From a virus (lineage: Duplodnaviria > Caudoviricetes): a stretch of 59,731 bases of DNA. The position numbers were made by a program, and so were the translations under genes. Numbering within the stretch: position 1 is the first letter of the stretch; every line of letters starts with the position of its first letter. The stretch covers positions 1 through 59,731 of the IMG/VR virus record IMGVR_UViG_3300025121_000443, one strand, 5' to 3'. Below the pieces are notes generated by a model, which was not told the DNA's origin, did not search any database, and saw only the letters and a program-made list of their open reading frames with translations. Below, piece after piece: positions 8,015-49,753 of this stretch.

Positions 8015-8121
8015 AAGAGTGGTTTTTGTATAGGTATTAAATAACCTTAACCTAAAATAAATTAGTAATCGAACGTATTTTTAGCCCTAATTTAAGGCTA
8101 AAATACACCTAAAGGGTAAAA

Positions 8122-9177
8122 ATGCAAATTTCCAGCGAAGTCATTTCAAGATCTGTGGTATCTCTCCCAAGATATGCAAAATTGATTGGATACAGAGAGT
8201 GTGCTTTCTTTGGGGTCTCTCATGAGGAAAATCCAAGTTTTGCATGCAGAGAAATCTGGACGAAATCCCAAAGAGACGACATATCTGCATATCTTCAGGA
8301 AGCTCAAGAAACTATTGAAAGGGTTCTTGAATATCCATTAGAACCTACTTGGATAGCAGATGAACGACATGACATCAATACCATTCTAATTACAGATTGG
8401 GGCAGAATAATAGAAGCTGGAATACGAGCAGAGGAAGAATTATCTGGAGACATACCAGTAGATGTTGAGTCTTTTGGCGTTGGACTGGATACTTTTACCG
8501 TTTCCTTTATTTCTCCTTCTGTAATAGATGATTTATCTGAAGTTCATGTGTTCTATCCAGATTCAGAACTAGAAATTTATCCTTCTGGAATTACGTATGA
8601 CGAAACTTCTCAATTACTTACAATTTCCATTCCTAGATGTAGAATGGTAGATTATGATCTTTTGGATAATCCTCCTGAAGGATTATTATATACAGAAAAT
8701 AGTAACTTTCAGACTACTGTAGATGTGAAACGAATTTATACTGACGATTCAGTTCAAGCAAAATTAATGTATAGAACAGAATCATGTCCTCCAGGATGTG
8801 TGGAAACTTACGATAATGTGTGTATATTTCTAGATAATCCATACGTAGGAAAAGTTAGAATAAATTATGGATATCCTACTACATGCAAATCATATGATCA
8901 TGTTCAATTGAATTACAAAGCAGGAATGACTGAAATTACTAGAACGGTAGAATCAATGGTTATACGGCTTGCTCATTCCATGATGCCTACCGAGCCTTGT
9001 GGTTGTGATGTAACTCAAAGACTTTGGTTACGAGATAGAGAAATTCCAAAGATTCTAACCAAAGAAAGAATTGAATGTCCATTTGGTATGTCTGATGGTG
9101 CATGGATTGCCTGGAAATGGGCTTGTGGTATTCAATTGAATAGATTATCAGCATTGGTAGGAAAAAGAAAATTATGA
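8122..9177 (+). CDS. Putative head-tail adaptor, Cys-rich
   Basis: Position after capsid; AQETIERVL..PL and VQLNYKAG segments typical of adaptors. Confidence 0.5.
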   Translation: MQISSEVISRSVVSLPRYAKLIGYRECAFFGVSHEENPSFACREIWTKSQRDDISAYLQEAQETIERVLEYPLEPTWIADERHDINTILITDWGRIIEAGIRAEEELSGDIPVDVESFGVGLDTFTVSFISPSVIDDLSEVHVFYPDSELEIYPSGITYDETSQLLTISIPRCRMVDYDLLDNPPEGLLYTENSNFQTTVDVKRIYTDDSVQAKLMYRTESCPPGCVETYDNVCIFLDNPYVGKVRINYGYPTTCKSYDHVQLNYKAGMTEITRTVESMVIRLAHSMMPTEPCGCDVTQRLWLRDREIPKILTKERIECPFGMSDGAWIAWKWACGIQLNRLSALVGKRKL

Positions 9178-9695
9178 TACAGATGGAAGCTATTCGCCCT
9201 AAACAGTTTGATGATTCTAGATTAAGACAACATGTATTTTTTGAGATGTCTGCTTATGGAGAAGAAATAGCTAAGGAATTCAGAAAAACTACAGTAGGAT
9301 GGAGGAAAGATAAACCAAAATTCAAACCCAAACTTAATACTAGAACTGATCGTAATACGATTGAAGTAACTGTAGGAACAGATAATCCAGTTTGGAATTA
9401 TATTGATAAAGGCGTTTCTGGACATATGATTTATCCAACGAAACCTAGAATATCGGGAACAGCTGGAACATATGATGCAAGAACCATGCCTGGAACATTG
9501 AGATCGGATCCTGCGGGTGGTGTAAAAGTTTTAGATGGAAATTACTTCAATCTCAATCATGCGTTCTTCTGGACTGGTATAGAGCCCAGAAATTTTAGTC
9601 AACAAATAACGGAAGAATTCAGTACTGGAAGAAGAAGTATGCAAGCAAGATTTCAAGCAATAATAGACAAACACGCTCCAACTGTATGGAAGTAA
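9174..9695 (+). CDS. Putative tail-completion (HK97 gp10-like) protein
   Basis: Basic; WNYIDKGV..H.I.P and GIEPRNF motifs; synteny. Confidence 0.5.
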   Translation: MIQMEAIRPKQFDDSRLRQHVFFEMSAYGEEIAKEFRKTTVGWRKDKPKFKPKLNTRTDRNTIEVTVGTDNPVWNYIDKGVSGHMIYPTKPRISGTAGTYDARTMPGTLRSDPAGGVKVLDGNYFNLNHAFFWTGIEPRNFSQQITEEFSTGRRSMQARFQAIIDKHAPTVWK

Positions 9696-9709
9696 ATGAA
9701 AGGAGTTAT

Positions 9710-10081
9710 ATGAAGGAATTAGTAAAAATAAAACCGATCTTTAGAAAAAAGATGGCTACATTGATAGAATATGTAGAGGATGGAGTTCCTTATCGCGTAA
9801 GTGTTCAGTCCTCTAGTATTGTAACTAAAGAGAAGGATTCATACGTTCCAAGACATTTATTGGATCAAGGTTTACCGTATGGAGTTCCTTGGAGTTTGAA
9901 ATTGAATATTAATATGATAACTCCTGAATCTTTAGAGATAGAGTTGCACAAAGCTGGAATATGGACTGCAGAGGACGCCCTAAAGAATCCTTCTACTGTT
10001 CAGTCAGCACTATTGTCTGCACTTAGAATTAATCTAGGTGATCTTTTGAGAATTGCCAAAGAAAGTCAACATAAGGAGTAA
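9710..10081 (+). CDS. Hypothetical virion-region protein
   Basis: RBS AAGGAG before ATG 9710; located before tail tube gene. Confidence 0.45.
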   Translation: MKELVKIKPIFRKKMATLIEYVEDGVPYRVSVQSSSIVTKEKDSYVPRHLLDQGLPYGVPWSLKLNINMITPESLEIELHKAGIWTAEDALKNPSTVQSALLSALRINLGDLLRIAKESQHKE

Positions 10082-10085
10082 TAAT

Positions 10086-11546: not shown

Positions 11547-11548
11547 TC

Positions 11549-12435: not shown

Positions 12436-15400
12436 ATGCCGATAGGATTATCTGCTCTTACCGCAGCTTCTTTCACAGAAATTGGCGTAAAAGCCGTCAT
12501 GGATTTATCGAATTATACAAAGAATACTACTACGTTCAAATCTGAACTAAAGAGTATGACAGACTTTGTGGATAAATTTGCTAAATCTATTTCTGGAAAA
12601 TTCGAGGAATCTACTGAAGAAGTAAATAAACTCGGTGATATGTTTCACCGAGTTGTCTCTATTGTTGGTGGTATTGTTATTGCTGACATGTTCAGAGGAT
12701 TCAATAGAGCTATTGGTGATGTGGTAGGACAAACTTTAGAAGCTGTAGATACCTTTCAGAAGTTAGAAATTCAATTAGAAACGATTGTTGCTAGAGATTT
12801 TGCCGTTCAAAATCAAATACCAGTTCAAGAAGCATTTGCAAAAACTTCTGGTTTGGCAGAAGATCTTTTGAACTGGGTTACTCAAGTTGCTGTTCAAACT
12901 CCATTCAGTGCTCAAAGTGTTGGTAAAGTTCTTGCTATGGGTCAAGCCTATGGATTCTCCACAGACATGGCTCAAAGAATGGTTATGACCGTAGGAGATT
13001 TCACGGCTTCAATGGGTGCTGGAAATGAAGTGTTGGAAAGAATTATTTATAACTTGGGTCAGATGTCTGCTGCTGGAAGACCAACTGGTCGTGAGTTAAG
13101 AGACCTTGCGAATAACTTTGTTCCAATCAATCAAATTGCTGATAGATTTGCAGAAAAGATGCAAATATCCAGAGCAGAAGTTTTGGATTTATTCAGAGAA
13201 GGAAAAATAGCTGCTTCTGAGTTTATTGAAGAATTCTTACTTTTGGTAGAAGAAACTGTTCCTGGAGCTATGATGAGATTGTCCAGAACATTTCAAACGG
13301 TAAGAACAAATCTTCAAGACTTAATTCAGATTATGCTTGGATTTAGACTTCTTGGACCGATCGCTAATCAAGTAGCAGAAGATCTTCAAGAAATGCTAGA
13401 ATCTTTGATGACAGATAGAACAGCTGATTTGATGGATAGTTTAGGACAGGCTCTATTATTCTCGTATACAAAAATGGGAGATATAGTTTCAAAGCAAGTT
13501 CAGCCAGCTTTTTCTAAATTATTCAGCACTCTTGGCGGTGCATTACCGACTATTGATAATATGCACGTTGGAATTTTACGATTTGCTGCTGGATTCACTG
13601 TACTTAATAAGCAAATGGCAGAAGGTGCTTCAGGAGTTGCCGATTTTATCCAGAGAGTTTTGAATTATTTTGGAACTTCTTTTGAACAGATAAAAGTGAA
13701 TATGCAAACATGGGGCAAAAATATAGTTTTATCATTTGCTCAGGGTATGGCGTCTGCAATTTCAGCAGTAATACAAGTTATCAATTTTATTGGTCAAGCC
13801 ATATCTAGACTATTGAAATCTAACAGTCCTCCGTTATTGCTTCCAGATCTAGAGGTCTGGGGTGCTAATGCTATGCTTGCATATATGGAAGGTTGGAGAA
13901 ATGCAGATTTTTCTGTCTTTGACGATATTGGAAATATATTAGAGAGCGCAATAGAATCTTGGGAAGGAAAAATTGGAGCAGAAGCTGTTATATTCAGAAT
14001 TCTTGGTTCAAAGAAAGCATTAGCAGATATCATAGAAGAGTATAGAAATTTTGGAACTATTTCTAGCTCTGCTATGGCTAATCTTACAAATGTTATTGGA
14101 ATAGCTTCTGAGCATATTGATCAGTTCATTCGCAAATCATTAGAATTGACTGATGTGGTATCTATACGAGAAGCTGTCCAAGATTTATGGGATTTCGAAG
14201 ATTTAGTCCCTGTAAATATATTTGGAGAAGTAGTTGATTCCTTCCAGGATATCGTAGATCTTGCGGGTAGATTTGGAGATGAGCTTTCTCAGTCTATTAT
14301 AAATTACGCAAGATCTTCTGAAAGACTGGTTTATATAAATGAAGAAATAGCCAGAACTCAAGAAGAAATAAATCAATCTACAGAAAAGTATGATGACTTG
14401 ATCGCTAGTCTTACCGCACAATTAAATCGTGTAAAAGATAGAAGTGAGGATATTTCTAGAATTGCTCAAATAGATCGTACTCTTAAGAAAGTTATTCTTA
14501 CAGCTACAGAACGAGAACGGTTAGAGCTTGAAAAGGAACAGATATTACTTGAGCGTCAAATTAGAATAGCTAAAGAACAAAGAGATGCAGAAGAAAAAGT
14601 AGGAGACGCTAAATTAGATGCTCTGAAAGATGAAAAAGATGAAGTAGAAGCTAAGTTAAAGCAGGAAAAGAAGTATATAAATGAAGTTTCTGAAGCAAAT
14701 GTACAGGCTTTAGAGAATGAACTAAAAGCTCTTGAAGATATCATAAATGCTCAGATAGAGCTTAATGAGCTTATTAATAGACAGGTGAATATAAAATTAA
14801 GTGGAGGAGGGGGAAGTGATATCTCTGGTCTAACGGATGATCTAGAAGATTTGATAGATCAGGCTCTGTTAGATGCTACGGAAGCATTAGACATAGAAGC
14901 AGAACTTCAAGCTATGTGGGATGAAATTTTAAAACAAGCAGAGGATTTTTGGAAAGAAATAGAGGAACCTTTCTTACCCCTAGGAGATTTATTCGAAAAT
15001 GCTTTACAAACTTGGAAAGATGTAATTGAGGATCCAACATTTCAAGCTGCGTGGACGAATTTTACAACCCAAATAGATGAAGGATTAAAGATTCTTACAG
15101 ATTTCTGGGATAGAGATGGAGAAAGTATTCTAAAAGCTATCGGAGATCTTTTGGGTGGAATATTCACCAATTTGTTTATTACTACAGAAGCTACAGGAAA
15201 AAGCGTCTTAGAATTATTAGGAGATTTATTCATATCTTTTGCAAATACCATTGATGAGCATGGAGAAGATATAACCTCATTTCTAAATGATTTCTCTACA
15301 TTTATAAATGAAACCACATTCGATAAGATCAAAGAATTTCTAGCAAATTTAGCTGAAACCTGGATTCCAGCTATCGGAGATTTTGCTTCTACAGCTGCTC

Positions 15401-17001
15401 CTATCATTCTGAAATTGCTAACTTTCATTGTTGATAATGCAGATACCCTTATAAAAGTATTTATAGCCAGTAGGCTTCTGAATGCTGCTTCTGGAGAGGT
15501 TTCCAATCAATTCAAGAAATCACTAACACTTGAAAGATATACTGAGGGATTTAAATCTCTATCAATTCTTGTTCCATTAGTTGCTATAGGAATTGGAGAA
15601 ATTGCAAAGAAGGGTAAAGAATTTTTAGAAGGAAAAGGGGTTGGAACATTTTTCGATGGAGTAAAAGAATCATTCAAAGGTATATTTACTGGAGACATGA
15701 TCGAAGAAAAGCAAATTCTAGGTCCAATAGACTGGAAAGCTACCGGAGAAGCTATATCTACTTGGTGGAATGAAGACGTCAAATCTATATTTACTGGAGA
15801 TATGATCGAGGAAAAACAGATAATAGAACCAATAGATTGGGAAGCCACAGGAGAAGCAATTTCTACTTGGTGGGATAAGTTATTTGGAGAAAATGGTACA
15901 CTTGTTACGGGACAAAATCAGTCTCAACAACAAATGGCTACATGGGCTCAGGATACCTATGGAACAAATAGTGAATTAAATACTCAACTTCAATTGGCTG
16001 GAACAAATCTAGAAACATGGTGGAATACTAATTTTGGAGAAGGTGGAATTGTTCCTACATGGTATCTCACATCTTCTGGACAAGCAACTGAGTGGATAAT
16101 GGGAATTTTTGGTGATGAAGGCTCAGTAAATACCTGGATGAAACAAGCTGGATTAGATATTGAATCTTGGTGGTCTACAAATTTTGGAGAAGGTGGAACA
16201 GTTCCTACGTGGTATATGACCTCTACCGGAAATGCTACCGATTGGATTATGGGAATTTTCGGTGAGGAAGGTGTTGTAAATACATGGATGGCTAATCAAG
16301 CTCTAAAAATTGGAGAATGGTGGGAAGGATTATTTGGAGAGGGAGGATCTGTTACTTTGTGGTTCAGCACTTCATTTACTGACTTTGAAACATGGATCAA
16401 AAGCATATTTGGAGAAGAAGGCGTTATAATGACGTGGCTAAAAACAGCTGAAACAGACATAGAGAATTGGTGGAATGGATTGTTTGGAGAAGATGGAACT
16501 ATATCTGGATGGTTTGATACCGTTATAACGAATTTCTCTACGTTTGGAGAGAATCTTATTCAGGGAATAATAGATGGAATTGCAGCGAAAGCCAGCAACT
16601 TATTCACTACGGTAAAGGATGTAGTCAAAGATGCTTTAGGTATTGCAGAAGCAGAATCTAAAACTGAATCTCCGTCAAAGAAATATATGGAATTAGGAAA
16701 GAACTGGATGAAAGGATTAGAGCAGGGCGTAAGAATAAACGCTATTCTTATAGACGATGTAATGAAAGATATTGTGGGCTCTTCTCTAGAAGCTATAAAA
16801 ATCATGCAAACAATGCAGAAAATGTTTATAATGAATCCATCTACGATAAATCCGTTATCAGGTTCTACCGTAGTTCCTGCAAAGACTACATACAATCATT
16901 ATACTACAGCAATAACTGTGAATCCTACATATGAAAATTATGCTTCTCCAGCTTCAATTTACTATGATGTGTCTGCTGCATTAGCTTCCTCAAGGAGATA
17001 G
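12436..17001 (+). CDS. Tape measure protein
   Basis: 1521 aa; N-terminal A..TPF...LGQM..AG...ELR.L domain; helical; Trp-periodic repeats; SPSK near C-terminus. Confidence 0.92.
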   Translation: MPIGLSALTAASFTEIGVKAVMDLSNYTKNTTTFKSELKSMTDFVDKFAKSISGKFEESTEEVNKLGDMFHRVVSIVGGIVIADMFRGFNRAIGDVVGQTLEAVDTFQKLEIQLETIVARDFAVQNQIPVQEAFAKTSGLAEDLLNWVTQVAVQTPFSAQSVGKVLAMGQAYGFSTDMAQRMVMTVGDFTASMGAGNEVLERIIYNLGQMSAAGRPTGRELRDLANNFVPINQIADRFAEKMQISRAEVLDLFREGKIAASEFIEEFLLLVEETVPGAMMRLSRTFQTVRTNLQDLIQIMLGFRLLGPIANQVAEDLQEMLESLMTDRTADLMDSLGQALLFSYTKMGDIVSKQVQPAFSKLFSTLGGALPTIDNMHVGILRFAAGFTVLNKQMAEGASGVADFIQRVLNYFGTSFEQIKVNMQTWGKNIVLSFAQGMASAISAVIQVINFIGQAISRLLKSNSPPLLLPDLEVWGANAMLAYMEGWRNADFSVFDDIGNILESAIESWEGKIGAEAVIFRILGSKKALADIIEEYRNFGTISSSAMANLTNVIGIASEHIDQFIRKSLELTDVVSIREAVQDLWDFEDLVPVNIFGEVVDSFQDIVDLAGRFGDELSQSIINYARSSERLVYINEEIARTQEEINQSTEKYDDLIASLTAQLNRVKDRSEDISRIAQIDRTLKKVILTATERERLELEKEQILLERQIRIAKEQRDAEEKVGDAKLDALKDEKDEVEAKLKQEKKYINEVSEANVQALENELKALEDIINAQIELNELINRQVNIKLSGGGGSDISGLTDDLEDLIDQALLDATEALDIEAELQAMWDEILKQAEDFWKEIEEPFLPLGDLFENALQTWKDVIEDPTFQAAWTNFTTQIDEGLKILTDFWDRDGESILKAIGDLLGGIFTNLFITTEATGKSVLELLGDLFISFANTIDEHGEDITSFLNDFSTFINETTFDKIKEFLANLAETWIPAIGDFASTAAPIILKLLTFIVDNADTLIKVFIASRLLNAASGEVSNQFKKSLTLERYTEGFKSLSILVPLVAIGIGEIAKKGKEFLEGKGVGTFFDGVKESFKGIFTGDMIEEKQILGPIDWKATGEAISTWWNEDVKSIFTGDMIEEKQIIEPIDWEATGEAISTWWDKLFGENGTLVTGQNQSQQQMATWAQDTYGTNSELNTQLQLAGTNLETWWNTNFGEGGIVPTWYLTSSGQATEWIMGIFGDEGSVNTWMKQAGLDIESWWSTNFGEGGTVPTWYMTSTGNATDWIMGIFGEEGVVNTWMANQALKIGEWWEGLFGEGGSVTLWFSTSFTDFETWIKSIFGEEGVIMTWLKTAETDIENWWNGLFGEDGTISGWFDTVITNFSTFGENLIQGIIDGIAAKASNLFTTVKDVVKDALGIAEAESKTESPSKKYMELGKNWMKGLEQGVRINAILIDDVMKDIVGSSLEAIKIMQTMQKMFIMNPSTINPLSGSTVVPAKTTYNHYTTAITVNPTYENYASPASIYYDVSAALASSRR
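15681..15873 (+). repeat. 105-bp (35 aa) tandem duplication inside tape measure gene
   Basis: IFTGDMIEEKQI..PIDW.ATGEAISTWW occurs twice, in frame. Confidence 0.85.
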
Positions 17002-17924: not shown

Positions 17925-19064
17925 ATGCAAACATTGGATATTTCCTATACTGTAGTTCTTAGAAACGCTACATTCGGTATAGAAAAAGTATTTGACTCTA
18001 TATTTGGATTAGCTTACTCTAGAGAAATAAATGGAGTTGGATCATTCAATTTTTCTATAAATGGTCAAGATTCTAGAATTCCATTGTTTAAGCTAGACAA
18101 TATAATTGAGATAAGAAGAGGATTATTAGTTGCTGGACTTCAGAAATATACAGAATGTGTTGGTTTGGTACGAAAGACCAATTTATCTGTATCTAATCAA
18201 GGAGAGTATAATTTTGAAATTTCGGGCGTTGGATTAAATCATTTTCTCGAGAGAACGATTATAAATTATCCAGCTGCTACTATAAAATCTTATAAATTAG
18301 ATGCTTCAGAAACAGCAATGAAAGAATATGCAGAAGAAAATTGTGGAGTTTCTGCGATAACTGATGTAGGTTTTGAAAGAGATTCCTATGGTGTTCTTCC
18401 TAATTTTGTTGTTGATCCTTCTACCGGAGCTGGAATAGAGTGGGAAGGTGATCGGGCGTATGCGAATTTATTGGAAGTTCTAAAAGATATTGCCAATTAT
18501 TCAAGTATAGACTTCGAAGTTGTTTGGGATAGACAAGCTAAGTTATTCAGATTCAAAACATATCCAAATGGATATGGATCTGATAGAACGGTAATAGGAT
18601 TGAATAGAGAAACTGGTTTAAATGCTTCTGGAAATATTCCGGTTATATTTTCTCTTGATCGAGGAAATATTCAAGAAATAGAACATGTAGTTGATAGATT
18701 ATCGGAAACGAATGTGGTAACGGTATTGGGAGAAGGTGATGGTGCTACAAGAAACATAAAAGTTAGATCCAAAATAACTCAATATGATTCTTTGTGGAAT
18801 AGATGTGAATCTTCAAGATCCAAATCTGGATTTGAAAGTGAAATGGAAGTTGCCGGAGATGAATATCTTGAGGAATTAAAATATGTAGATAATATTACAT
18901 TCAAACCTCTATCTCAATTATCCACATTATATGGCAAACATTTTTTCCTTGGAGATAAGATCTCAATTTATTTCAATGGCTCAATTTATAATAGAAGAAT
19001 AGTAAAGGTAGATGCTTCCTATCAAGAAAAAGAAGATCTATCTTTTGAAATACAGGAATTTTAG
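17925..19064 (+). CDS. Tail hub/minor tail protein (ReqiPepy6 Gp37-like)
   Basis: NGVGSF, VIFS..RGNI, VLGEGDGA.R and YGKHFFLGDKI motifs; synteny. Confidence 0.7.
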   Translation: MQTLDISYTVVLRNATFGIEKVFDSIFGLAYSREINGVGSFNFSINGQDSRIPLFKLDNIIEIRRGLLVAGLQKYTECVGLVRKTNLSVSNQGEYNFEISGVGLNHFLERTIINYPAATIKSYKLDASETAMKEYAEENCGVSAITDVGFERDSYGVLPNFVVDPSTGAGIEWEGDRAYANLLEVLKDIANYSSIDFEVVWDRQAKLFRFKTYPNGYGSDRTVIGLNRETGLNASGNIPVIFSLDRGNIQEIEHVVDRLSETNVVTVLGEGDGATRNIKVRSKITQYDSLWNRCESSRSKSGFESEMEVAGDEYLEELKYVDNITFKPLSQLSTLYGKHFFLGDKISIYFNGSIYNRRIVKVDASYQEKEDLSFEIQEF

Positions 19065-31304: not shown

Positions 31305-31712
31305 ATGAAAATATCTTCATTTGATACAGGTATAACTACTGGAATAGTTTTGGTAGATATAGACGAAAACAAATTTGAGTCTACGGTTTTGGAGACTTTG
31401 GAAGCTAAGGAAAATGATCTATCATATTTATCAGATAGAATAGTGTATGTTAGTGATTTAATTCTGATAGAACAAACTCCATATTTTGTAGATCCTATCC
31501 TAAAAATGATCCAGGGAATGGTTACTCATCATTGCAAAATGTACGAAAGGTCAGTAAAGTTTATTTATCCTGGATTGTGGAAACCATTCGCTAAGGCTAG
31601 AAGGTGGAATAAAACTGTATCGTCTCAGCATATACAAGATGCGTATAATATGTTGAGATATGAAGTATTCTTTAGGTTCTTTACAGAGCTAAAAGATTTG
31701 GAGATAAGATGA
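31305..31712 (+). CDS. RuvC-like Holliday junction resolvase
   Basis: SFDTGITTG, ILIE, P..WK, H..DA motifs. Confidence 0.7.
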   Translation: MKISSFDTGITTGIVLVDIDENKFESTVLETLEAKENDLSYLSDRIVYVSDLILIEQTPYFVDPILKMIQGMVTHHCKMYERSVKFIYPGLWKPFAKARRWNKTVSSQHIQDAYNMLRYEVFFRFFTELKDLEIR

Positions 31713-33482: not shown

Positions 33483-33540
33483 AGACATAGAAGTAGCTTT
33501 ATCAAATATAAAATATATAGAAAACGAAAGGGAAAATGAA

Positions 33541-33870
33541 ATGGAAAATCCACAAGTAAAATCAGAAATTAGCGTAAATGCAAAACCAAAAGACAAACGT
33601 GTTGAAACTTTTGGAAGAGTTTGTAGCTCTTGCGAGAAATTGTTTGAACAAAAGAACGATGAATATGGCGACACTATTGTTGCTACCGGAGTTCTTGGTG
33701 CTTCAGTTGAATTAATTGGCGTAGTTGCAAGGCTTAAGAAATTAGTTTTGCAAGCTCCAGATGGTGGAAAAGCAAACATGACGGCACTTGCTGATGTGTT
33801 CAAAGATATCCACAATTATGCCAATATTGGTCTCATGATGATGAACGAAGATAACTGGAAAGGAAAATAA
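33541..33870 (+). CDS. Nucleotide-modification-associated domain (Nmad1/DUF1599-like) protein
   Basis: LF.QKN.EYGD and D...DIHNYA motifs. Confidence 0.65.
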   Translation: MENPQVKSEISVNAKPKDKRVETFGRVCSSCEKLFEQKNDEYGDTIVATGVLGASVELIGVVARLKKLVLQAPDGGKANMTALADVFKDIHNYANIGLMMMNEDNWKGK

Positions 33871-33871
33871 A

Positions 33872-34669
33872 ATGAAAGTGCTTGCTGGGATTCCTACAAG
33901 GCTTAGAGACACAAGCGGAAAAATAGCTGATGTATTGGCTAAAGTTTGTGATGAAGTATATGTGGTATCTCAGGGAGCAACGGTAAATTCTATTTCCTCA
34001 AACGTAACGGTAGTAGAGAAGGATCTCAATTATGGGTTGGTAGCAGCTCGTAATGAGATCCTTCGTTACGCTAATGAAAAAGAATATGACATCGTTGTTC
34101 AATCTGATGACGATCTAAAATATAATCCAGATGTAATTGAAGCTCTAGTTCAAGAAGTAGTAGAAAATCCTTTGCTAGGTGCTATTGCTTCCAGTTCTAG
34201 AGCTTACTTCAGATGGAATGAAGGAAACATAACGAACCAAAATTGGGTTCTAAATCCTTGTGCTGCTCAATTGTGGGCTGCTAGAAGATCAATTCTAAAT
34301 GAGGTCGGAGAATGGGAGCTGGAATTTTTGGAAGATAGATATCACGGAGCTAAAATGTGGAGCATGGGTTATCCTATCGGATTACTCCATACTACATTAA
34401 CTCAAACACATAATCCATTTATCGCCAGAACCCAAAAGGGTGAAAGTTCAGGTGGTCAAGAACAGGGTGTGGTACGACAACAGCGTCTTCAAAAAGCAAT
34501 AGAGATACTTAATCGTGATTTCGGTAACATTGTTACCGCAACCATTCAACCTATTGGCTCAAGCAGAACATTTTCCACAAGATACAGATGGGATAAACTT
34601 ATTCAATATGTTATTGATAGATGGCAATATGGCGTAGGATATGAAGACAATAGAGGAAGGAGAATGTAA
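33872..34669 (+). CDS. GT-A fold glycosyltransferase (candidate DNA-base glycosyltransferase)
   Basis: IPT..R, GL..ARN.I, QSDDD, LED, terminal SSGG motif. Confidence 0.7.
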   Translation: MKVLAGIPTRLRDTSGKIADVLAKVCDEVYVVSQGATVNSISSNVTVVEKDLNYGLVAARNEILRYANEKEYDIVVQSDDDLKYNPDVIEALVQEVVENPLLGAIASSSRAYFRWNEGNITNQNWVLNPCAAQLWAARRSILNEVGEWELEFLEDRYHGAKMWSMGYPIGLLHTTLTQTHNPFIARTQKGESSGGQEQGVVRQQRLQKAIEILNRDFGNIVTATIQPIGSSRTFSTRYRWDKLIQYVIDRWQYGVGYEDNRGRRM

Positions 34670-35457
34670 TGAAAGTTTGTCAAGGAGAAAACGGTACTGA
34701 AGTAACTCACTCCTTTAATGATCGCGAAAGAGAAAAGATGAATTATTCTACAGGTGTTAGCGTAGAAATGTGTCCTCTTTTTGATTTCAGTAAAGAACCA
34801 TGGATGTTGATTTCCTCAATGGAAAGACAAATGATTCTTGCCTATCAAGTAGTACGATATCTTGATCTTGATCGTATTGAGGGAGAATATTCAGTCTTAG
34901 ATGTAGGCTGTGGATATTGCGAACTTTATACATTACTTCATAGATATCGCAAAGCTAAAGGCGTATCAGTAAAATACATTGGAATTGATGTGGATGTAGA
35001 TAAACAAATCATAGCAAAACAACTTCGTCCAAAAGTAGATTATCGCGTAGAAGATTTTCTTACTTCCGACCCGCTAGCGGAAGCTCCTTTTGATTGCGTT
35101 GTAAGTGGAGATGTTTTAGAACACTTTGACGCAGAAGAATCTAATGTATATCTAAAGAAAATGATTTCTATGCTCAAGGTAGGTGGTATTCTTGTTCTGA
35201 GTTATGCAACTCCATTAAGCACAAAGCATAGAGAAAATCCTTTCCACAAACTTTGTTGGAGTACAGATGATGTAGAAGTAAAATTGACAGAGCTTGGAAT
35301 GAGCATATCTGATAGCTTCTATCTTGGTATATACAAAAAGGAACTTCCATTTTGGTCAGACAGGCTTCCAACAGATTTAGCTAGAAATATTATCAGTGTA
35401 TTTGTTGACGGAGTTGAAGGTAATGAGGGTATAACAATAGCTAGAAGGATAGGATAA
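34669..35457 (+). CDS. Class I SAM-dependent methyltransferase
   Basis: VLDVGCG, YIGID, FDCVV..DVLEH, LK.GG motifs. Confidence 0.85.
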   Translation: MKVCQGENGTEVTHSFNDREREKMNYSTGVSVEMCPLFDFSKEPWMLISSMERQMILAYQVVRYLDLDRIEGEYSVLDVGCGYCELYTLLHRYRKAKGVSVKYIGIDVDVDKQIIAKQLRPKVDYRVEDFLTSDPLAEAPFDCVVSGDVLEHFDAEESNVYLKKMISMLKVGGILVLSYATPLSTKHRENPFHKLCWSTDDVEVKLTELGMSISDSFYLGIYKKELPFWSDRLPTDLARNIISVFVDGVEGNEGITIARRIG

Positions 35458-36209
35458 TGGCAGAAAATAACATCATTCAGACAATGAACTATTTTGGAAA
35501 ATTTGACATAAATTTCTTAACCTCGAAGTCAGCTACAGTTGAATTTGTAGACGGTACATTATATCCTTCAATGACTATTGCGAAAATAGCCAGAGGATAC
35601 AAAGGAATTTATTCAAATGAAATTCCTGAAAATCCTCAAGAATTATTAGATGATGTAAAATCTACTAAACTTCAAACACCAATGGAAATGATAACATTTG
35701 TATTCTTACTCAAAAGGGTTTCAAGAGCATTTACTCATCAATTAGTTAGAACAAGACATGCTTCATATGTACAGGAAAGTATGAGATTCTTGGGTCATAA
35801 AAATACCTATGAAGTTCTTGTTACTAACAAAGTAAAGAACAATCCAGAAGCTTTTAGAGCATACATGGAAACTTGTGGAACAGCTATCTATGAGTATGAG
35901 CATTTATTGGATTCAGGAATGCCCTCAGAAGATGCTCGCGGTGTATTGCCAACAAATATTATGACCTCTATATTTGTTCACTTACCGCTTAGCAGTCTTC
36001 AACGAATATATACTCAAAGACTATGTTGTCAAGCCCAAGAAGAATGGTATCATGTAGTAAAACAATTCAAAGTATCTTTGAGAGCTGAATATGGCGATGA
36101 TGTAGACGAATGGTTATCCGCTCCGGTAGAACGGGGAGAACCCTGCGGATACAATGCAAGTTTTGACAGACCATGTGTCTGGAAAAATGGGAAGGAAGAG
36201 GAGAGCTAA
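35457..36209 (+). CDS. thyX: Flavin-dependent thymidylate synthase-like protein (variant motif)
   Basis: VSRAFTHQLVRTRHASYVQESMRF, EDARGVLP, R.C.QAQ.E. Confidence 0.8.
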   Translation: MAENNIIQTMNYFGKFDINFLTSKSATVEFVDGTLYPSMTIAKIARGYKGIYSNEIPENPQELLDDVKSTKLQTPMEMITFVFLLKRVSRAFTHQLVRTRHASYVQESMRFLGHKNTYEVLVTNKVKNNPEAFRAYMETCGTAIYEYEHLLDSGMPSEDARGVLPTNIMTSIFVHLPLSSLQRIYTQRLCCQAQEEWYHVVKQFKVSLRAEYGDDVDEWLSAPVERGEPCGYNASFDRPCVWKNGKEEES

Positions 36210-36210
36210 C

Positions 36211-36417
36211 ATGTTAATTGGAAGATGTAAATCATGTGGAAGTACTGATCTTCAATTGGATCATTCTCTATTAGTATGCTCTACTTGTGGCAAAGAATTA
36301 AAGTTCTATCAAATAGAATTTATAGTTGTAGATGGTATTGTTCACGGAGAACCCTTTAGACATGATAATCCAGAAACTACTATTCAGCATAGATTACCTT
36401 TGATGGAGAGTGTATGA
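36211..36417 (+). CDS. Zinc-ribbon protein
   Basis: CKSCG...CSTCG; RBS GAGGAG. Confidence 0.55.
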   Translation: MLIGRCKSCGSTDLQLDHSLLVCSTCGKELKFYQIEFIVVDGIVHGEPFRHDNPETTIQHRLPLMESV

Positions 36418-37058
36418 TGTATCCTATGCCCTCTTCATGCCAAATCAAAAACTTAGCTGAAATATATGAATTTATCTTTAAAGAAAAGACGAATGGTTTC
36501 TTTGTAGATGTGGGTGCATACGATGGATTTGAGTGGTCAAATACGTGGGCTTTGTCAGAAGCTGGATGGGAAGGATTATGTATTGAACCTTATCCCATGT
36601 ACGCTGAAAAATGTATGAATAAACATAATCAAGCTGGTCATAAAGTTACTACTCTTCAATGTGCAGTTGGTGAAGCTAATTGTAGATGTAACATGTTCCT
36701 TGATCCTACCGGATGTTCTCATACAATTGATGCAGAAACCACCATAAGATCTCCATGGGGTTTTGAATATGATGGCTCAAAACTAGAAGTAGATTGTTTT
36801 ACTCTTGATTTTATTCTCGACAATATGATGAAAACTTCTAAACATATTGATGTATTGAATATAGACGTAGAGGGTGCTGAGCTAAAGGTAATGGATGGAT
36901 TTTCATTTGTGAAAAGAAAACCAACCCTAGTGATCATAGAAACTCATAAGGGTCAGTATGGAAAAGATTTCCATGCTGAAGAAATTTTTAATCTAATGAG
37001 TTATTTTGGATATGAAGAAATACAATCTGATGGATTAAATTCTATTTTTAAAATCTAA
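36414..37058 (+). CDS. FkbM-family methyltransferase
   Basis: FVDVGAYDG..SN, W.GLCIEP, IDVLNIDVEGAE motifs. Confidence 0.88.
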   Translation: MMYPMPSSCQIKNLAEIYEFIFKEKTNGFFVDVGAYDGFEWSNTWALSEAGWEGLCIEPYPMYAEKCMNKHNQAGHKVTTLQCAVGEANCRCNMFLDPTGCSHTIDAETTIRSPWGFEYDGSKLEVDCFTLDFILDNMMKTSKHIDVLNIDVEGAELKVMDGFSFVKRKPTLVIIETHKGQYGKDFHAEEIFNLMSYFGYEEIQSDGLNSIFKI

Positions 37059-37076: not shown

Positions 37077-39051
37077 GTGTCTCAATATATAATAACTCTT
37101 GATGAATTAATGAGAGGTAGCGGTAGCACGATATCTCTAGACACTGAAACCACTGGTCTGTCGTGGTCAAATGATAAGCTAATTGGAGTAGGAACATACT
37201 GTAAAAATTTGAATGTCATGGGATATGTTCCCACACTTGACGATGTGGAAAGAAATAGAGTAAAATCTGCTCTAAAAGAACTTTCTAAAGATACAACAAT
37301 CATAATGCACAATGCAAAATTCGATCTCCACTTTATGGGATTAAACCCAACAAAGGGAGGTTGGAAAATTTTAGATACGACTGTTATGGTTCATCTTCTA
37401 GATTCCAGAAATAAAAAGTCTTTGAAAGAATCTGAGAATACTTTTCTTGGAACAGATAGCAAAAGACATCACGTAGCAGCAGCTCCAGCAAGAACCAAAA
37501 TTTGGGATTGGAGCCTGGATTTGGTTAGTGCATATTGTGCGAATGACTGCTTAGTAACCTATCAACTTGCGGAGGTTTTATATCCAAGACTGGAAGCTGA
37601 GGGTCTTCTGAAAGTATTTTGGAAAGAAATGAAATATCTGCGAGTTGTAAACGACATAGAAGAATATGGCGTGGTATTAGACGAAGATTTTGTTTACTCT
37701 GCTTCTGCAAAACTAGGAAGAAGTCTTGAGAAAATGGAAGAGGAACTCTATGATGCGTGTGGTAACACCTTCAACTGGAGAAGTCCTCAACAATTATCCA
37801 AAGCAATTTATGATGGACTTGGGATTCCAAGGCCAAAGAATCCATTTGCAGATGCTGACGGTATAGACCGTAGTAGATTTGCAGATTCCGGTAAATACAA
37901 ATCTACTTGCACGAGCACATTTCTTCTTACCGAGAAGGTTCATCATCCTCTTGGAGAATCCTCTTGGAGAACTTATAAGCTCTATGAGAGAATGTGCCAA
38001 ACTGCGAAAAAGTTTGCTGAAATATCTAGAGCTAAAAGACGAAAACAGAATACTTCATACAACATTCAACATGACTGGTACTCGTACAGGTAGATTGAGT
38101 TCATCTAAACCTAATTTGCAGAATGTAGCTTCTGCTACACGTGGTAGATTTACTCAATCTGTTTATACTGGTAGTGTTGAAAGAACAGACGAGTTCAATA
38201 TGCGCAGGGCAATCAAACCTCGTCCAGGACATGTCTTTGTAGCTGTAGACTATAAGCAAATGGAAATGAGAATGTTTGGTATACTTTCTCAAGATCCGTT
38301 TATGTTGAATGCGTTGCTTGCAGGTAAGGATGTTCACTTAGAAATAGCTTTGAAAGTTTGGGGTGATTGTGGCTATGATATGAATATGGTACATCGTGAG
38401 TGGTCTAAAACAATTACATTCGGATTAATTTATGGAATGACTCTTGGTAGTTTGCAGTATAAATTGAATATGACAAGAATGCAAGCTGCGAAAGTAACTG
38501 ATCAATATTGGGGAGAATTTCCTCGCATCAAACCCTGGATGAATGAAATCATAGAATCCTGTAAAATGATGGGATTCGTAAGATATTGGAGTGGAAGAAT
38601 ATGGAGAGAAGACAATCCTCTGGATATGTATAGAGGTTGTAATGCTCTAATTCAAGGTGGTTGTGCTGACTTTCTCTCTATAGCTGCGATAAAAGTTTAT
38701 GAATGGACGCTAAAACAACCTAGTCATCATATAATAAATTTAGTGCATGATGAAATTATAACGGAAGTTCCAGAAAATGATATCTTGAGATCTGCAAGAG
38801 TAATTTCAGAGCTTATGCAGGTTCCAGAAATATTTAACATTCCATTTGCTACAGATGCTAAAGTAGGAATATCTTATGGAGAAATGGTAAAGATAGACAA
38901 AGAATTATTATTAGATAATTCAATTGAAAGCATATCAATGGAAGAATTGTATGCTAGAGATAAAATATCTCATGATGCTAAAATAGCTGTTACTGAAGAA
39001 AAGGAAAATCCATTTGAAGAAGAACTAGAAGAAGAACTCTCAGAGGAGTAA
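37077..39051 (+). CDS. polA: Family A DNA polymerase with 3'-5' exonuclease, frameshifted by a 13-bp tandem duplication
   Basis: LDTET, HNAKFD, Y..ND exonuclease motifs; TGRLSS..PNLQN, DYKQMEMR, K...FGLIYG, VHDE; removing one ATCCTCTTGGAGA copy gives one 653-aa ORF. Confidence 0.9.
37945..37970 (+). repeat. 13-bp perfect tandem duplication in polA
   Basis: ATCCTCTTGGAGA ATCCTCTTGGAGA. Confidence 0.95.
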
Positions 39052-41710: not shown

Positions 41711-41716
41711 AATAGG

Positions 41717-41797
41717 TTCTAGGTTTATTTTTGCTAAAATTGCAAGGTATAAAATAACCTATATTAGTTTAAACCGCTTTAAAATGCTTTATTTTAG
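41717..41797 (+). repeat. About 81-bp intergenic direct repeat, copy 1
   Basis: Near-identical to 46859-46940 (TTATTTTTGCTAAAAT(T)TGCAAGGTATAAAATAACCTATATT...CGCTTTAAAATGCTTTATTTTAG). Confidence 0.9.
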
Positions 41798-41874
41798 CCC
41801 CATAAATTCATAAAAAGGTATAAACTAAGCGTAAACGTGCAAAATATATTCAAAGTTCATTTTTTATCTGGCAC

Positions 41875-41946
41875 TTGTAATATGAATAAAAAGAACCTAT
41901 AATTAATGTAGTAATGGGGTAAAATGTAGAAATTTTCGATATACAC
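41875..41946 (+). promoter_or_regulatory. Promoter plus leader motif AATTTTCGATATACAC
   Basis: TTGTAA-17 bp-TATAAT (41875-41903); motif 41931-41946 just before RBS. Confidence 0.7.
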
Positions 41947-41956
41947 AGGGAGATAG

Positions 41957-42268
41957 ATGGTAAGATACGAAGATTACGAAGATTACGAAGATATATACAG
42001 AAGACTTAGTCAATGGGCAGATGAAGTAACCTCTTCTATGGAATATGTTATATCCTCAGCTTCCTCTGGAATGCAAAGATGGATACAGGAAGCTCTTCCT
42101 TCTCCCTATAATCTGAAAGAGCACAGAAAGTATTATCAAGAGTATCTCAAGTGGTTGCTAAATCACTTTGGTACATATCCTATTATAAAGGTAAAGAGGA
42201 TAGAGAAGAGGATCTTTCTCAGTATAAATACACCTCTATGCAGATCTCCTCCGGTAACTTTATTCTAG
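41957..42268 (+). CDS. Hypothetical protein
   Basis: RBS AGGGAG after promoter; in-frame YED x3 repeat. Confidence 0.5.
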   Translation: MVRYEDYEDYEDIYRRLSQWADEVTSSMEYVISSASSGMQRWIQEALPSPYNLKEHRKYYQEYLKWLLNHFGTYPIIKVKRIEKRIFLSINTPLCRSPPVTLF

Positions 42269-42590: not shown

Positions 42591-42865
42591 GCTCAGACGA
42601 AGAAATACTATCTCAAAGAGACGAAATTGTCAAAAGATTAAAAACTAATGATGGTTATGGTATAGGGATCTCAGCTTTCCTAGCTGCAGAAATTCTAGTC
42701 AAAGCAGAAAAGATAGAATCTATTTTAGACGAAAACAAAGAAATAAAATTGGATAGACGGAAATCATCTGCTAGTCATTTTGACGATATTAGTATGAGAG
42801 AATTTGCTAATGAGCATCCTGAAACATGTACTGCTAAGACTTGCCCTTATAGCTCAAATGGATAG
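42587..42865 (+). CDS. Hypothetical protein
   Basis: ATGA coupling with upstream gene; 3' end overlaps tRNA. Confidence 0.45.
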   Translation: MSSDEEILSQRDEIVKRLKTNDGYGIGISAFLAAEILVKAEKIESILDENKEIKLDRRKSSASHFDDISMREFANEHPETCTAKTCPYSSNG

Positions 42866-42916
42866 AGCAACAGCCTTCTAAGTTGTAGGTTCAGAGTTCG
42901 AATCTCTGTAAGGGTG
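42843..42916 (+). tRNA. tRNA-Arg (anticodon TCT), no encoded CCA
   Basis: Acceptor GCCCTTA/TAAGGGT, D arm GCTC/GAGC, anticodon stem ACAGC/GTTGT with CT-TCT-AA loop, T arm CAGAG-TTCGAAT-CTCTG. Confidence 0.93.
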
Positions 42917-43003
42917 CTACGGTAGAACAGAGTGTTGATCTGTGCATGGGTGAGTACCAGTCCTGCAACCCACTACCGAATTTACTTGCATCAAAAGGAG
43001 CAT

Positions 43004-46282: not shown

Positions 46283-46290
46283 GGTGTGGT

Positions 46291-46446: not shown

Positions 46447-46456
46447 GGAGTGTGGT

Positions 46457-46735: not shown

Positions 46736-46856
46736 AATTGAAAAGGATGAAAACGGTAACAGCATCATCGTATCTTATGAAATCATCATATGCAAAGAGT
46801 GTAATTCAAAGACAACGCACAATAAACCTAACATTAGAAAGTGGAAGCGTGACTAA
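46671..46856 (+). CDS. Zinc-ribbon protein
   Basis: CTKCG...CKEC; RBS AAGGAG. Confidence 0.45.
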   Translation: MYICTKCGERTDFPVKRMRSSRIEKDENGNSIIVSYEIIICKECNSKTTHNKPNIRKWKRD

Positions 46857-46858
46857 AA

Positions 46859-46940
46859 TTCTAGTATTATTTTTGCTAAAATTTGCAAGGTATAAAATAA
46901 CCTATATTGTTTTAAAACGCTTTAAAATGCTTTATTTTAG
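46859..46940 (+). repeat. About 81-bp intergenic direct repeat, copy 2
   Basis: Near-identical to 41717-41797. Confidence 0.9.
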
Positions 46941-47002
46941 GCGTAATTTTACGCCTGATAACGTGTTTTGGCATATATAACCAGTAAACGCTAAAGAAAA
47001 TT

Positions 47003-47596
47003 ATGGGAACATACAGTTCAGAAAAATTCAAACTATTGCGGGATAAAAGAGCAGCAAGGCTCAGAATATTGAGCTGCTTCTATGACTACTCGCCCATCTT
47101 CGTGAAGAGCAATGGAAATAATCGTCATTTTACGAAAGCTGAAGTAGCAGTTGTTCAGTCTTGGAATCACTTTCAAGATGTAATAGATTGGATGCATGAA
47201 GAGGAGATTATATCCTCAAAGTATGATTACCGAAATTTGCATTTGGATCTCTGGTATCTAAAAAAAGAACTCTCTCCCAAGTATGGTAAGAAAGTTCAGG
47301 AAACATGTAGCACAGGTGCTGAAAAATTACTGCTTCATGTGGTAATTCAAGCCTTGCTGGATGTTCATTCTAAAAGACCTTGCGACGTGGCGATATGGGG
47401 TACAGATCTATCTCCCGACTCGGTGTATTGTACCCCTACCGCTCATGTCTGTTCTCAAAATGCAGAGAGATTTTTGAAAAGTCTTGACGCTAATTTTGAG
47501 GAATTTATTGGTGTATCTCGTGGATGTATTTATGATATATTGCATAGAATAAAAAAAGATCCCAATTATTATTTGGGATCTTTATGCACAGACTAA
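47003..47596 (+). CDS. Hypothetical protein, last rightward gene before convergence
   Basis: 197-aa ORF; LLL.VVIQAL.D helix. Confidence 0.5.
   Translation: MGTYSSEKFKLLRDKRAARLRILSCFYDYSPIFVKSNGNNRHFTKAEVAVVQSWNHFQDVIDWMHEEEIISSKYDYRNLHLDLWYLKKELSPKYGKKVQETCSTGAEKLLLHVVIQALLDVHSKRPCDVAIWGTDLSPDSVYCTPTAHVCSQNAERFLKSLDANFEEFIGVSRGCIYDILHRIKKDPNYYLGSLCTD
47551..47584. terminator. Bidirectional terminator at convergent junction
   Basis: AAAGATCCCAA-ttattat-TTGGGATCTTT flanked by A and T tracts. Confidence 0.65.
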
Positions 47597-48889: not shown

Positions 48890-48909
48890 TTGTCCTCCTT
48901 TAGGACGGG

Positions 48910-48949
48910 AACAGGTTACACCGCAATAATCATATCGGTGTAACCTGTT
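48910..48949 (-). terminator. Hairpin downstream of 48980-49474 gene
   Basis: AACAGGTTACACCG / CGGTGTAACCTGTT 14-bp perfect stem. Confidence 0.5.
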
Positions 48950-48979
48950 TCAAAATGTGGCGTGACGTACTAAACGTGA

Positions 48980-49474
48980 CTACTGCACAACTTCTCCAGT
49001 ACGGGGATCACGTGATCCTTTGGCTATCCAAACTTTATCTTCGGTGACGGCTTTCTTTAATTTCACTTTCTTGCCGCCCTGCTCCCCTTCGATTTTTTCT
49101 TTCTTTGGACGCCCTTTGCGCTCAACTTTGTGGAATTCAGGATCATTCAAAAGCTCAACACCTTTGGTAAGGATTTCCGGAGATCCATATTTTCTTCCAC
49201 CAACATAAACTACCTGGAATACTGGAGCCCACGGATCGTTGGCAGCTCTATCTCCACCCATAGCGGTGCAGATACGTGATTTCTTCACGCCCAACTCCAC
49301 AGCTTTTTTCACAATTTCTGACATTACTAAGTAACCTTCAGGAACTGCATCAACTGAATGTTCGGCTAAATGTTTAGCCCATGATTCCGGTGTCCACTTG
49401 TTGGACAGTCTTGGTTCCTTAGGAACTTTGACTACTTTTTCCTTTTTTACTTCCTGTTTTACTTCTTGTTCCAT
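48980..49474 (-). CDS. Lys-rich protein, paralogue of 58198-58655
   Basis: Shared PEG...MS...A...G......A.GGD.A...F.VVYVG..KY..PE.LTKG..LL; AT-hook-like RKGRPKK. Confidence 0.65.
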   Translation of the reverse strand: MEQEVKQEVKKEKVVKVPKEPRLSNKWTPESWAKHLAEHSVDAVPEGYLVMSEIVKKAVELGVKKSRICTAMGGDRAANDPWAPVFQVVYVGGRKYGSPEILTKGVELLNDPEFHKVERKGRPKKEKIEGEQGGKKVKLKKAVTEDKVWIAKGSRDPRTGEVVQ

Positions 49475-49496
49475 TTTAGTGCTCCCTTTCTTTTAC

Positions 49497-49563
49497 TATA
49501 TCGAATTTTTCGGCATTGCGTGCCAGCTATAAATAGTATACCAAAGAATGCATTCATTTACAA
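49497..49563 (-). promoter_or_regulatory. Leftward promoter plus leader motif
   Basis: TTGTAA-17 bp-TATACT (49563-49535); AAATTCGATATA before RBS. Confidence 0.7.
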
Positions 49564-49753
49564 TAGGTAAACCAAAAATGATACATTCTACGACCAGTGC
49601 TTAAGCACTAACAATATATACCCCTAATGAGATTTATAAGGGCAAAAATAGCCACGTACGAATTCGTAACTTATATGTTGGGGCAAATATACCCTATAAG
49701 TTTCATAACACCGTAAAATGGCTATTTTTGTGCCTACAAAAATTGATACCAAA

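Follow-up and report, generated by a model that had tools for sequence, protein, structure and literature searches.

GA/TC-free islands in an uncultured phage genome are the edge of a larger, conserved word-free feature

The contexts in which DpdA systems place 7-deazaguanines are GA and GGC in Escherichia phage CAjan, according to part of the published account (PMC7544227), and GA only in Pseudomonas phage iggy, for which the accessible portion of its report gives modification of at least 97% of GA sites (PMC10484667). The T-dioxygenase 5mYOX97 is described, in an excerpt of the corresponding article, as preferring NTC (PMC13229309), and the context of Mom is SAS (PMC13219725). The present analysis concerns a virus record from IMG/VR of 59,731 nucleotides (nt) (IMGVR_UViG_3300025121_000443; 37% G+C, judged 71% complete), which as a whole is called the window, and the runs within it that contain neither of the two complementary words GA and TC. 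An earlier note had pointed out these runs as islands in a genome otherwise full of GA and TC; that observation is confirmed, and the islands are the edge of a much larger conserved feature for which the strongest evidence lies outside the window.

A 41-mer taken from the right end of the window retrieved two metagenome contigs, L079 and L080. The former extends the window by 847 nt; the latter has 86-100% of its 21-mers in common with the window over 4.5 kb and was taken to be the same phage. In L080, about 1-1.8 kb past the right end of the window, the 1422 nt from 705 to 2126 contain a single GA/TC, against about 150 expected. Within them, positions 827-2126 are 1300 nt with no GA (84.5 expected) and no TC (65.5 expected), and hence word-free on both strands; the other 122 nt lie beyond the single occurrence. 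The tract has a G+C content of 39%, with observed/expected ratios (O/E) of 1.70 for TT and 1.31 for AA. It starts at a GAACGT box, after iteron-like arrays of GTGGTATC/GATTCG, and ends before a promoter-like site and a conserved bordering gene, referred to below as the flank gene. Several tandem arrays are contained in it, including an 11-nt unit repeated ~8.4 times, and yet, when the array spans are added up, ~900 nt are non-repeat and equally word-free. The tract is probably non-coding and mostly repeat-array DNA; P0105, an open reading frame (ORF) within it, has no similarity to the tract protein of the relatives described below and may not be a gene.

Relatives of this phage were found through its primase. 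Megablast against phages gave no close relative of the window, tblastn with the primase matched only two Brevundimonas phages at 21% identity, with no close cultured relative, a single-protein scan of viral contigs found no relatives, and an exact 24-mer of the core of islands B and C (listed below) had 0 matches. Primase homologues define a metagenomic phage family; 52 loci were taken for comparison, and the whole records of five relatives, G001-G005, were analysed. GA/TC-free runs of 595, 213 and 123 nt in G004, of 107, 92 and 74 nt in G003 and of 87, 81 and 78 nt in G002 were each matched by no more than 1 of 200 simulations; nothing comparable was seen in the control classes AG/CT, AC/GT and CA/TG (lowest P 0.015). 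When the two words were counted singly, a stretch of 1366 nt without TC appeared in G003 and one of 1009 nt without GA in G002, while G004 has one of 1014 nt without GA and one of 595 nt without TC, where the longest single-word-free runs expected in these three genomes are 92-141 nt; a further locus, L083, is GA-free for 1004 nt. On the sense strand of the tracts in G002-G004, TC occurs 0 times, against 46-58 expected, with GA at an O/E of 0.62, 0.54 and 0.08; C is not depleted. Inside the relatives' tracts, TT has an O/E of 1.21-2.33 and AA of 1.16-1.38.

In all four relatives (G002, G003, G004 and L083) the tract measures 1.0-1.4 kb and lies beside one conserved gene, the same flank gene that borders the tract of L080. 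A tract of at least 1000 nt adjoins the flank gene in five of the nine loci that hold this gene; the four loci without a tract are the most distant, at 35-39% identity. The gene was not found in the window, G001 or G005, all three of which are incomplete records. In the distant relatives L085, L086 and L087, TC on the flank-gene strand is half as frequent as GA throughout the locus (0.034-0.042 vs 0.082), a diffuse bias with no tract.

The ban extends into genes. The tract of G003 begins ~65 nt ahead of a promoter-like site (69832-69859) and ends ~170 nt past a strong hairpin terminator (70944-70965), and in G003, G002, G004 and L083, though not in the window, a complete transcription unit is without TC on its sense strand, coding sequence included. 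Each of these four encodes a tract protein of 137-235 amino acids (aa) with a CxxCGK motif, and G003 and G002 have further small tract ORFs; these ORFs are intact and homologous (42.5% identity, G003 vs G002). Across six tract ORFs, serine is encoded by TCN 0 times and by AGY 21 times, ATC accounts for 0 of 27 isoleucine and TTC for 0 of 18 phenylalanine codons, GTC and CTC are both at 0, and a codon ending in T is followed by one beginning with C at 0 of 157 junctions. In the long ORFs of the same genomes, serine is encoded by 2566 TCN and 954 AGY codons (73% TCN), and T|C accounts for 3530 of 14022 T-ending junctions (25%). Paralogues of the tract protein elsewhere use TC normally as well (serine 12 TCN to 7 AGY; T|C 34 of 130). 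The tract protein belongs to no Pfam or PHROG family, and its predicted model, of moderate confidence (predicted local distance difference test, pLDDT, 68.4), has no PDB match at E<=0.001.

Genome-wide, codon junctions are not depleted (O/E 1.35 for TC and 1.08 for GA), and GA/TC is enriched, at 1.17 in the window and 1.21-1.44 in G001-G003. Roughly a third of all possible substitutions in homologous modules would give rise to GA or TC, yet these modules differ by 15-20 mismatches and are still word-free (the pairs compared are not independent). Because junctions are not depleted, the word is enriched, the tract ORFs are intact and homologous, and the modules remain word-free despite their mismatches, we conclude that selection, and not composition or a genome-wide mutation bias, maintains the ban.

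The window contig stops within the repeat cassettes that precede the tract, and these hold a relative of the tract protein:

57939-59731, no strand: tail cassettes, repeats of families D8, D12 and D16, each combining iteron-like arrays rich in GATTC with a GAACGT box and a small ORF
58227-58655, plus strand: 142-aa ORF, paralogue of the relatives' tract protein, partly TC-poor (11 TC and 26 GA in 429 nt)

The product of 58227-58655 is 37.5% identical to the G002 tract protein over 72 aa (E 2.5e-5). The iteron-like GATTC arrays lie at 57939-57995, 59057-59107 and 59592-59615, with four GATTC words per ~50 nt; after each array come a GAACGT box and a small ORF. L079 and L080 carry further cassettes with GTGGTATC repeats.

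A recount on the letters of the window reproduced every GA/TC-free run that had been listed. The longest are 46861-46957 (97 nt) and 41719-41808 (90 nt), followed by 27216-27282 (67 nt), 8072-8131 (60 nt) and 8018-8069 (52 nt), the last two parted by a lone TCGA (8069-8072), and by four runs of 37, 29, 39 and 42 nt within 49593-49745. The window is otherwise rich in the word, as had been stated, with GA+TC at 13.6% of positions (O/E 1.17 for GA and 1.16 for TC). The comparison with a composition-matched Markov null that the earlier note proposed was carried out with local (±50 nt) base composition and genome dinucleotide odds in 1000 simulations. The longest simulated run averaged 56.5 nt with a maximum of 86, and none of the 1000 simulations reached 90 nt, placing the 97- and 90-nt runs beyond the null and those of 52-67 nt, taken singly, within chance. 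The window has six runs that measure 52 nt or more, where the simulations averaged 1.28; six were reached in 4 and five in 9 of the 1000 simulations. GA/TC was the most extreme of 10 strand-symmetric dinucleotide classes. The null is imperfect, because CA/TG is also above it: CA/TG-free runs of 82, 79, 64, 61 and 60 nt exceed the composition-matched null, the second-longest being reached in 0 of 300 simulations. The independent events are also fewer than they appear, because a single repeat accounts for both the 97- and the 90-nt run, its two paralogous copies agreeing at 93% over 82 nt, and because island D (below) is an inverted repeat whose arms are not independent. Pooled intergenic DNA is mildly poor in GA/TC (O/E 0.89, vs 1.19 in coding DNA), and the depletion is concentrated in four of the largest spacers (8015-8121, 41711-41956, 46736-47002 and 49475-49753).

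The islands and the control regions associated with them are as follows:

8018-8131, no strand: island A, two GA/TC-free runs (52 and 60 nt) parted by one TCGA
8069-8076, plus strand: box TCGAACGT, holding the sole GA/TC of island A
27216-27282, no strand: island E, a 67-nt run inside the linker of an SNF2 helicase ORF, of a length that alone is within chance
41719-41850, no strand: island B, runs of 90 and 42 nt directly past the primase-helicase stop codon (41710)
41875-41903, plus strand: sigma70-like promoter TTGTAA-17-TATAAT between island B and ORF 41957-42268, with 10 of 12 consensus matches (from a consensus scan only)
46861-46996, no strand: island C, runs of 97 and 39 nt, up to the ribosome site of ORF 47003-47596
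49590-49745, no strand: island D, four runs of 29-42 nt that together make up a long, imperfect inverted repeat ahead of ORF 48980-49474 (minus strand)
56129-56702, no strand: divergent control region with GA/TC-free runs of 36, 43, 31, 52 and 42 nt

Island A takes up the entire gap between ORF 7679-8014 and ORF 8122-9177 and resembles a promoter or leader module; AGGTATTAAATAACCT lies at 8032-8047. The island can be aligned with paired modules of the two closest relatives, L004 and L005 (35 matches and 16 mismatches against L004a), with which it has in common a TTTTG-N4-AGGTATWAAAT block and a (T/C)GAACGT box containing the sole GA/TC. The box stands at the matching place in four L004/L005 modules and recurs at 59135 and 59708 in the tail cassettes, and in the A-type module a TAnAAT-like hexamer, read by eye, directly precedes it. 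GAACGTW is not significantly frequent in the window (11 vs 6.96 expected; 6 of 100 shuffles reach 11), and an nhmmer search with the A-type module matched its own five seed sequences alone.

Island B carries AGGTATAAAATAACCT at 41745-41760, an element common to islands B and C, and is part of 174 nt without GA (41711-41884). Island C is a copy of island B (repeat family D7) plus the palindrome AGGCGTAATTTTACGCCT, and the non-homologous parts of both islands are word-free as well. Island E, which had been placed in the coding linker of a helicase, does lie there, at residues 86-108 of the SNF2 ORF 26960-28855, whose Pfam SNF2 domain begins at residue 193; it contains GGGTATATACGCCCC and AAGCGGTTTAAA, the latter being the reverse complement of TTTAAACCGCTT of island B and, judged by its letters, the island is a reversed piece of the B/C module core inside a protein linker. 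Island D holds GGGTATAT elements and adjoins a minus-strand sigma70-like site (49563-49535); its predicted fold (-48.2 kcal/mol) scores z -4.62 for the minus strand and -3.21 for the plus strand. At 56340-56690, within the divergent control region, ~4 copies of a CCATGTACTATACCC-like motif occur in either orientation, and a similar word adjoins the tract in G004. The quasi-palindromes centred on RGGTATW that the islands were said to share are present at 8032-8047, 41745-41760, 46888-46903 and 27241-27255, and on the reverse strand near 49680-49694; the motif itself is not enriched across the window (32 observed, 27.0 expected, 18 of 100 shuffles reaching 32), and 11 of the 32 sites, as read off the site list, are in non-coding DNA.

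From their position and motifs, we read the islands as non-coding control DNA of promoter/operator type. Islands B and D are just upstream of sigma70-like sites, beside and not overlapping them, and those sites contain GA/TC; a sigma70-like consensus scan of the window gave 63 sites vs 62.7 in shuffles. A Bacteroidota-type promoter (-7 TAnnTTTG) was considered and dropped, since the genes have Shine-Dalgarno sites and both sigma70-like promoters and hairpin terminators occur. Structured RNA was likewise rejected, Rfam giving one tRNA only and the RNA folds of islands A, B, C and E not being significant (z -0.13, -0.14, -1.80 and +0.78).

A ban that is two letters long, partly strand-specific and without tolerance points to an enzyme with dinucleotide specificity, and one specific for 5'-TC-3' or 5'-GA-3' would then act on phage nucleic acid. 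The simplest single cause of a two-strand ban combined with richness elsewhere would be a base modification that the phage itself makes at TC/GA after replication: DNA lacking the word would stay ordinary, and bindable by regulators, RNA polymerase or replication initiators, and in the relatives' cassette the template strand would be free of modified GA. The writer would be an enzyme from a family not yet linked to a TC/GA context. The earlier note had proposed a cluster of genes as its source, which consists of the following:

31709-37058, plus strand: proposed 'modification cluster', with a flavin-monooxygenase-like protein, a MazG fusion, a 167-aa protein, a glycosyltransferase of family GT2, an S-adenosylmethionine (SAM) methyltransferase, a ThyX-like protein and an FkbM methyltransferase
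31709-32560, plus strand: flavin-monooxygenase-like protein, 283 aa, in no Pfam family, its N-terminus bearing a GxGxxA dinucleotide-binding motif
32550-33482, plus strand: MazG fused to a phosphatase/kinase-like domain, matching PHROG 415 'polynucleotide kinase' (3.6e-11) and PHROG 420
33367-33870, plus strand: lineage-conserved 167-aa protein with no assigned function
33872-34669, plus strand: GT2, from the Pfam scan
35457-36209, plus strand: ThyX-like protein, part of the conserved core

The core of this cluster (the flavin-monooxygenase-like protein, the MazG fusion, the 167-aa protein and ThyX) is kept in most relatives, and the two methyltransferases are found in the window only. The P-loop-like half of ORF 32550-33482 gave tblastn matches to an annotated phosphatase or hydrolase in actinophages. 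The ESM Atlas groups the flavin-monooxygenase-like protein with phage-only 'oxidoreductase' clusters of flavin-monooxygenase-like predicted fold, and a PDB sequence search with it returned no match.

That a TC/GA-specific DNA modification leaves the word-free DNA unmodified is plausible and has precedent, and we offer it as the leading proposal, one that stops short of being probable. The fuller version is more tentative: that the lineage marks nearly every TC/GA by means of a family new to DNA modification, with the flavin-monooxygenase-like, ThyX-like and MazG-phosphatase block as candidates, and keeps an origin/regulatory cassette and key operators TC/GA-free so that they stay ordinary. Palindromes of six letters lend weak support to modification, as those with GA/TC are less avoided (0.86-1.00) than those without (0.71-0.82) in G001-G003. 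The earlier note had taken the islands for deliberately unmodified landing pads. The lack of GA/TC does stand as a selected property of control DNA, by virtue of the L080 tract and the relatives' recoded TC-free genes; base modification stands as a proposal, and neither known family of GA/TC-context enzymes was found in the six records (the window and G001-G005).

Several observations weigh against modification. A threat directed at RNA or single strands would more typically leave a strict ban on one strand of a transcription unit, as is seen in G003 and G002. Neither G004 nor G005 shows the palindrome contrast, and in the window it is small (0.83 vs 0.77). Action of the enzyme block on DNA is a proposal, its members being candidates, and the cluster core is also present in a relative, the single record L017/L085, in which no tract of at least 300 nt lies beside the flank gene. 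TGT/DpdA (PF01702) had no match in the window (E<=1) or in G001-G005 (E<=0.1), although it was found in 14 of 14 control genomes, and the Tet_JBP dioxygenase (PF12851) had none in the window or G001-G005; neither is thus present in any of the six records, which include one complete and one 95% complete genome. Queuosine-pathway families, including the preQ0 genes FolE, QueD, QueE and QueC, were absent from Pfam scans of 40 window ORFs, which covered the larger ORFs in the ~71% of the genome that the record contains. The sigma70-like promoters of the window have GA/TC in their spacers, as at 41875-41903, where the spacer contains GA. In CAjan, whose GA is modified, the runs of 81, 79 and 69 nt (P 0.24, 0.047 and 0.12) are not exceptional.

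The loci around the primase are a further point of this kind, since within ±10 kb of it the relatives are much like unrelated phage loci on most tests (duplicate or N-containing rows L008, L012, L019, L021, L025 and L041 were dropped). The AG/CT-matched region test was positive in 0 of 125 relative vs 2 of 256 unrelated regions, long runs numbered 5 (4.0 expected) vs 4 (5.4 expected), and simulations gave p<=0.05 in 3 of 19 vs 3 of 27 loci. With coding-derived odds the relatives were higher (11 of 144 regions vs 5 of 235; without these odds, 4 of 144 vs 3 of 235), and a shuffle test gave 10 of 144 regions in relatives vs 5 of 235 in controls. In the 150 nt past the primase stop, which are mostly coding in the relatives, pooled GA+TC numbered 269 vs 259 for AG+CT. 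GA/TC-free runs of 60-83 nt reached p<=0.01 in 3 of 27 unrelated phage loci. The runs in question, in unrelated or distant phages, are L048 6774-6856 (83 nt), L042 56-134 (79 nt) and L035 198-257 (60 nt), and phages may commonly carry shorter control regions that lack GA/TC.

The main rival to modification is evasion of a host weapon that strikes TC in single-stranded DNA or UC in RNA, such as a DarT-type ADP-ribosyltransferase, a TC-specific cytosine deaminase or an endoribonuclease, in which case the cassette would be the gene set and control region needed while the weapon is active. Weapons of matching specificity exist: the part of the DarT report available describes modification of T in TNTC on single-stranded DNA (PMC5179494), and an extract of the account of DddA presents it as a 5'-TC-specific DNA deaminase (PMC13346905). 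An absolute, one-stranded ban on sense TC, covering a whole unit with recoded genes, argues for such evasion, and zero tolerance fits it because a single cut or adduct would kill the transcript or block the template. We nevertheless regard it as unlikely: the genomes are otherwise TC-rich, so that a local ban spares neither replication nor most transcripts; the window's phage is word-free on both strands, in mostly repeat-array and probably non-coding DNA; and the islands of the window are short leaders or promoters ahead of ordinary TC-rich genes. Alternatively, no base chemistry need be involved if arrays of protein-binding sites (for an origin, partition or a regulator) happen to use words lacking GA/TC, or if a coating protein needs such DNA. 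The repeat arrays of L080 with their 11-nt unit, the quasi-palindromes and paralogous modules of the window, the inverted repeat of island D and the iteron-like arrays adjoining the tract all speak for binding or structure; the ~900 nt of non-repeat tract in L080, the non-homologous parts of islands B and C, which are word-free too, and the protein-coding sequence of the relatives, which obeys a one-strand ban, make this explanation improbable.

Two further explanations were considered. Were codon usage to enrich GA/TC, AT-rich non-coding DNA with duplicated modules and palindromes could yield long runs by descent and chance, as is suggested by the two longest runs being one duplicated element, by the 52-67-nt runs lying within chance, by the runs in unrelated loci (60-83 nt, p<=0.01 in 3 of 27), by the 0 of 125 in the AG/CT-matched test and by an intergenic O/E of just 0.89. 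Such a by-product could not produce 1300 nt with none of ~150 expected occurrences at 39% G+C, or one-strand bans of 1.0-1.4 kb with recoding at one conserved position in four relatives; within the window, 0 of 1000 simulations reach 90 nt and the modules have stayed word-free through 15-20 substitutions. The L080 and relatives' tracts largely refute it for the lineage, and overall we hold it quite improbable. The excess of TT and AA in the tracts of the relatives and of L080 would also be left by a mutational scar, in which repeated TC-to-TT deamination (GA to AA opposite) of an often single-stranded region erased the word, although the same excess is the expected residue of replacing TC and GA. 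A scar is highly improbable in view of zero survivors even at amino-acid-changing sites, of ORFs that are intact and homologous, of a position kept in five phages and of junctions that show no depletion elsewhere.

Other features of the window were noted in passing. A tRNA-Arg with anticodon TCT was found by both Rfam and ARAGORN at 42843-42917 (plus strand). The family A DNA polymerase consists of two overlapping plus-strand ORFs in different frames, 37077-38093 (exonuclease and start of the polymerase domain) and 37879-39051 (the remainder of the polymerase), both conserved in relatives, and may be a split gene or a programmed frameshift. A 1521-aa ORF at 12436-17001 (plus strand) contains periodic repeats of 75, 105 and 150 nt (15674-16513) with W-rich units, and a 43-nt unit is present in two tandem copies of 93% identity at 51132-51217, inside minus-strand ORFs. 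Two large glycosyltransferase genes, 1761-3461 (GT2 plus a GT1-like domain) and 6309-7682 (GT2), both on the plus strand, are in the left part of the window, upstream of a minor-tail-protein-like ORF (17925-19064).

A zero-tolerance ban over ~1-1.4 kb of control DNA and coding strands, on a word that is common elsewhere, implies that something in the infected cell reads this word. Sequence alone thus gives a testable TC/GA specificity for a writer or a weapon in uncultured groundwater phages; if modification is the cause, word-free tracts would read out the specificity of the writer directly from metagenomic sequence. A general approach is suggested, in which local, conserved word-free tracts lead to context-specific DNA chemistry or to the specificities of defence.

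Literature searches found no description of dinucleotide-free cassettes in phages. In the DpdA systems, to the extent that their published accounts are available, nearly every copy of a two-letter word is marked, and GA is the word banned here; in contrast to them, all six records of this lineage are without TGT/DpdA, and CAjan is without exceptional runs. The accessible portions of the two DpdA papers (PMC7544227, PMC10484667) make no mention of word-free control regions, and 'promoter' is absent from both texts. The thymidine hypermodification of the 5mYOX type is, in the excerpt concerned, post-replicative and context-specific, with kinases and glycosyltransferases acting next (PMC13229309), and in the window, too, a GT2 and a kinase/phosphatase-like fusion are encoded close to a ThyX-like gene. 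It differs in that none of the six records has Tet_JBP, a flavin-monooxygenase-like protein occupying the dioxygenase's expected place, and in that ORF 32550-33482 matches an annotated phosphatase/hydrolase and not a proven 5-hydroxymethyldeoxyuridine (5-hmdU) DNA kinase.

Restriction-site avoidance resembles the ban in that selection strips a short word from the genome, and this lineage does so classically for GGCC, which contains neither GA nor TC: 4 copies are present in the window vs 31.8 expected, with an O/E of 0.00-0.72 in G001-G005, a pattern that looks like classical avoidance of a HaeIII-type host enzyme. The GA/TC ban, by contrast, is local, non-palindromic and, in the relatives, strand-specific amid genome-wide enrichment; GATC and TCGA have a genome-wide O/E of 0.92 and 0.69 in the window. 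mRNAs that lack ACA resist MazF. Compared with such transcripts and with the TNTC target of DarT on single-stranded DNA (PMC5179494), the banned word here has only two letters, and the window's phage obeys the ban on both strands of mostly non-coding repeats; what the relatives have in common with those systems is a word missing from one strand of a whole unit, genes included.

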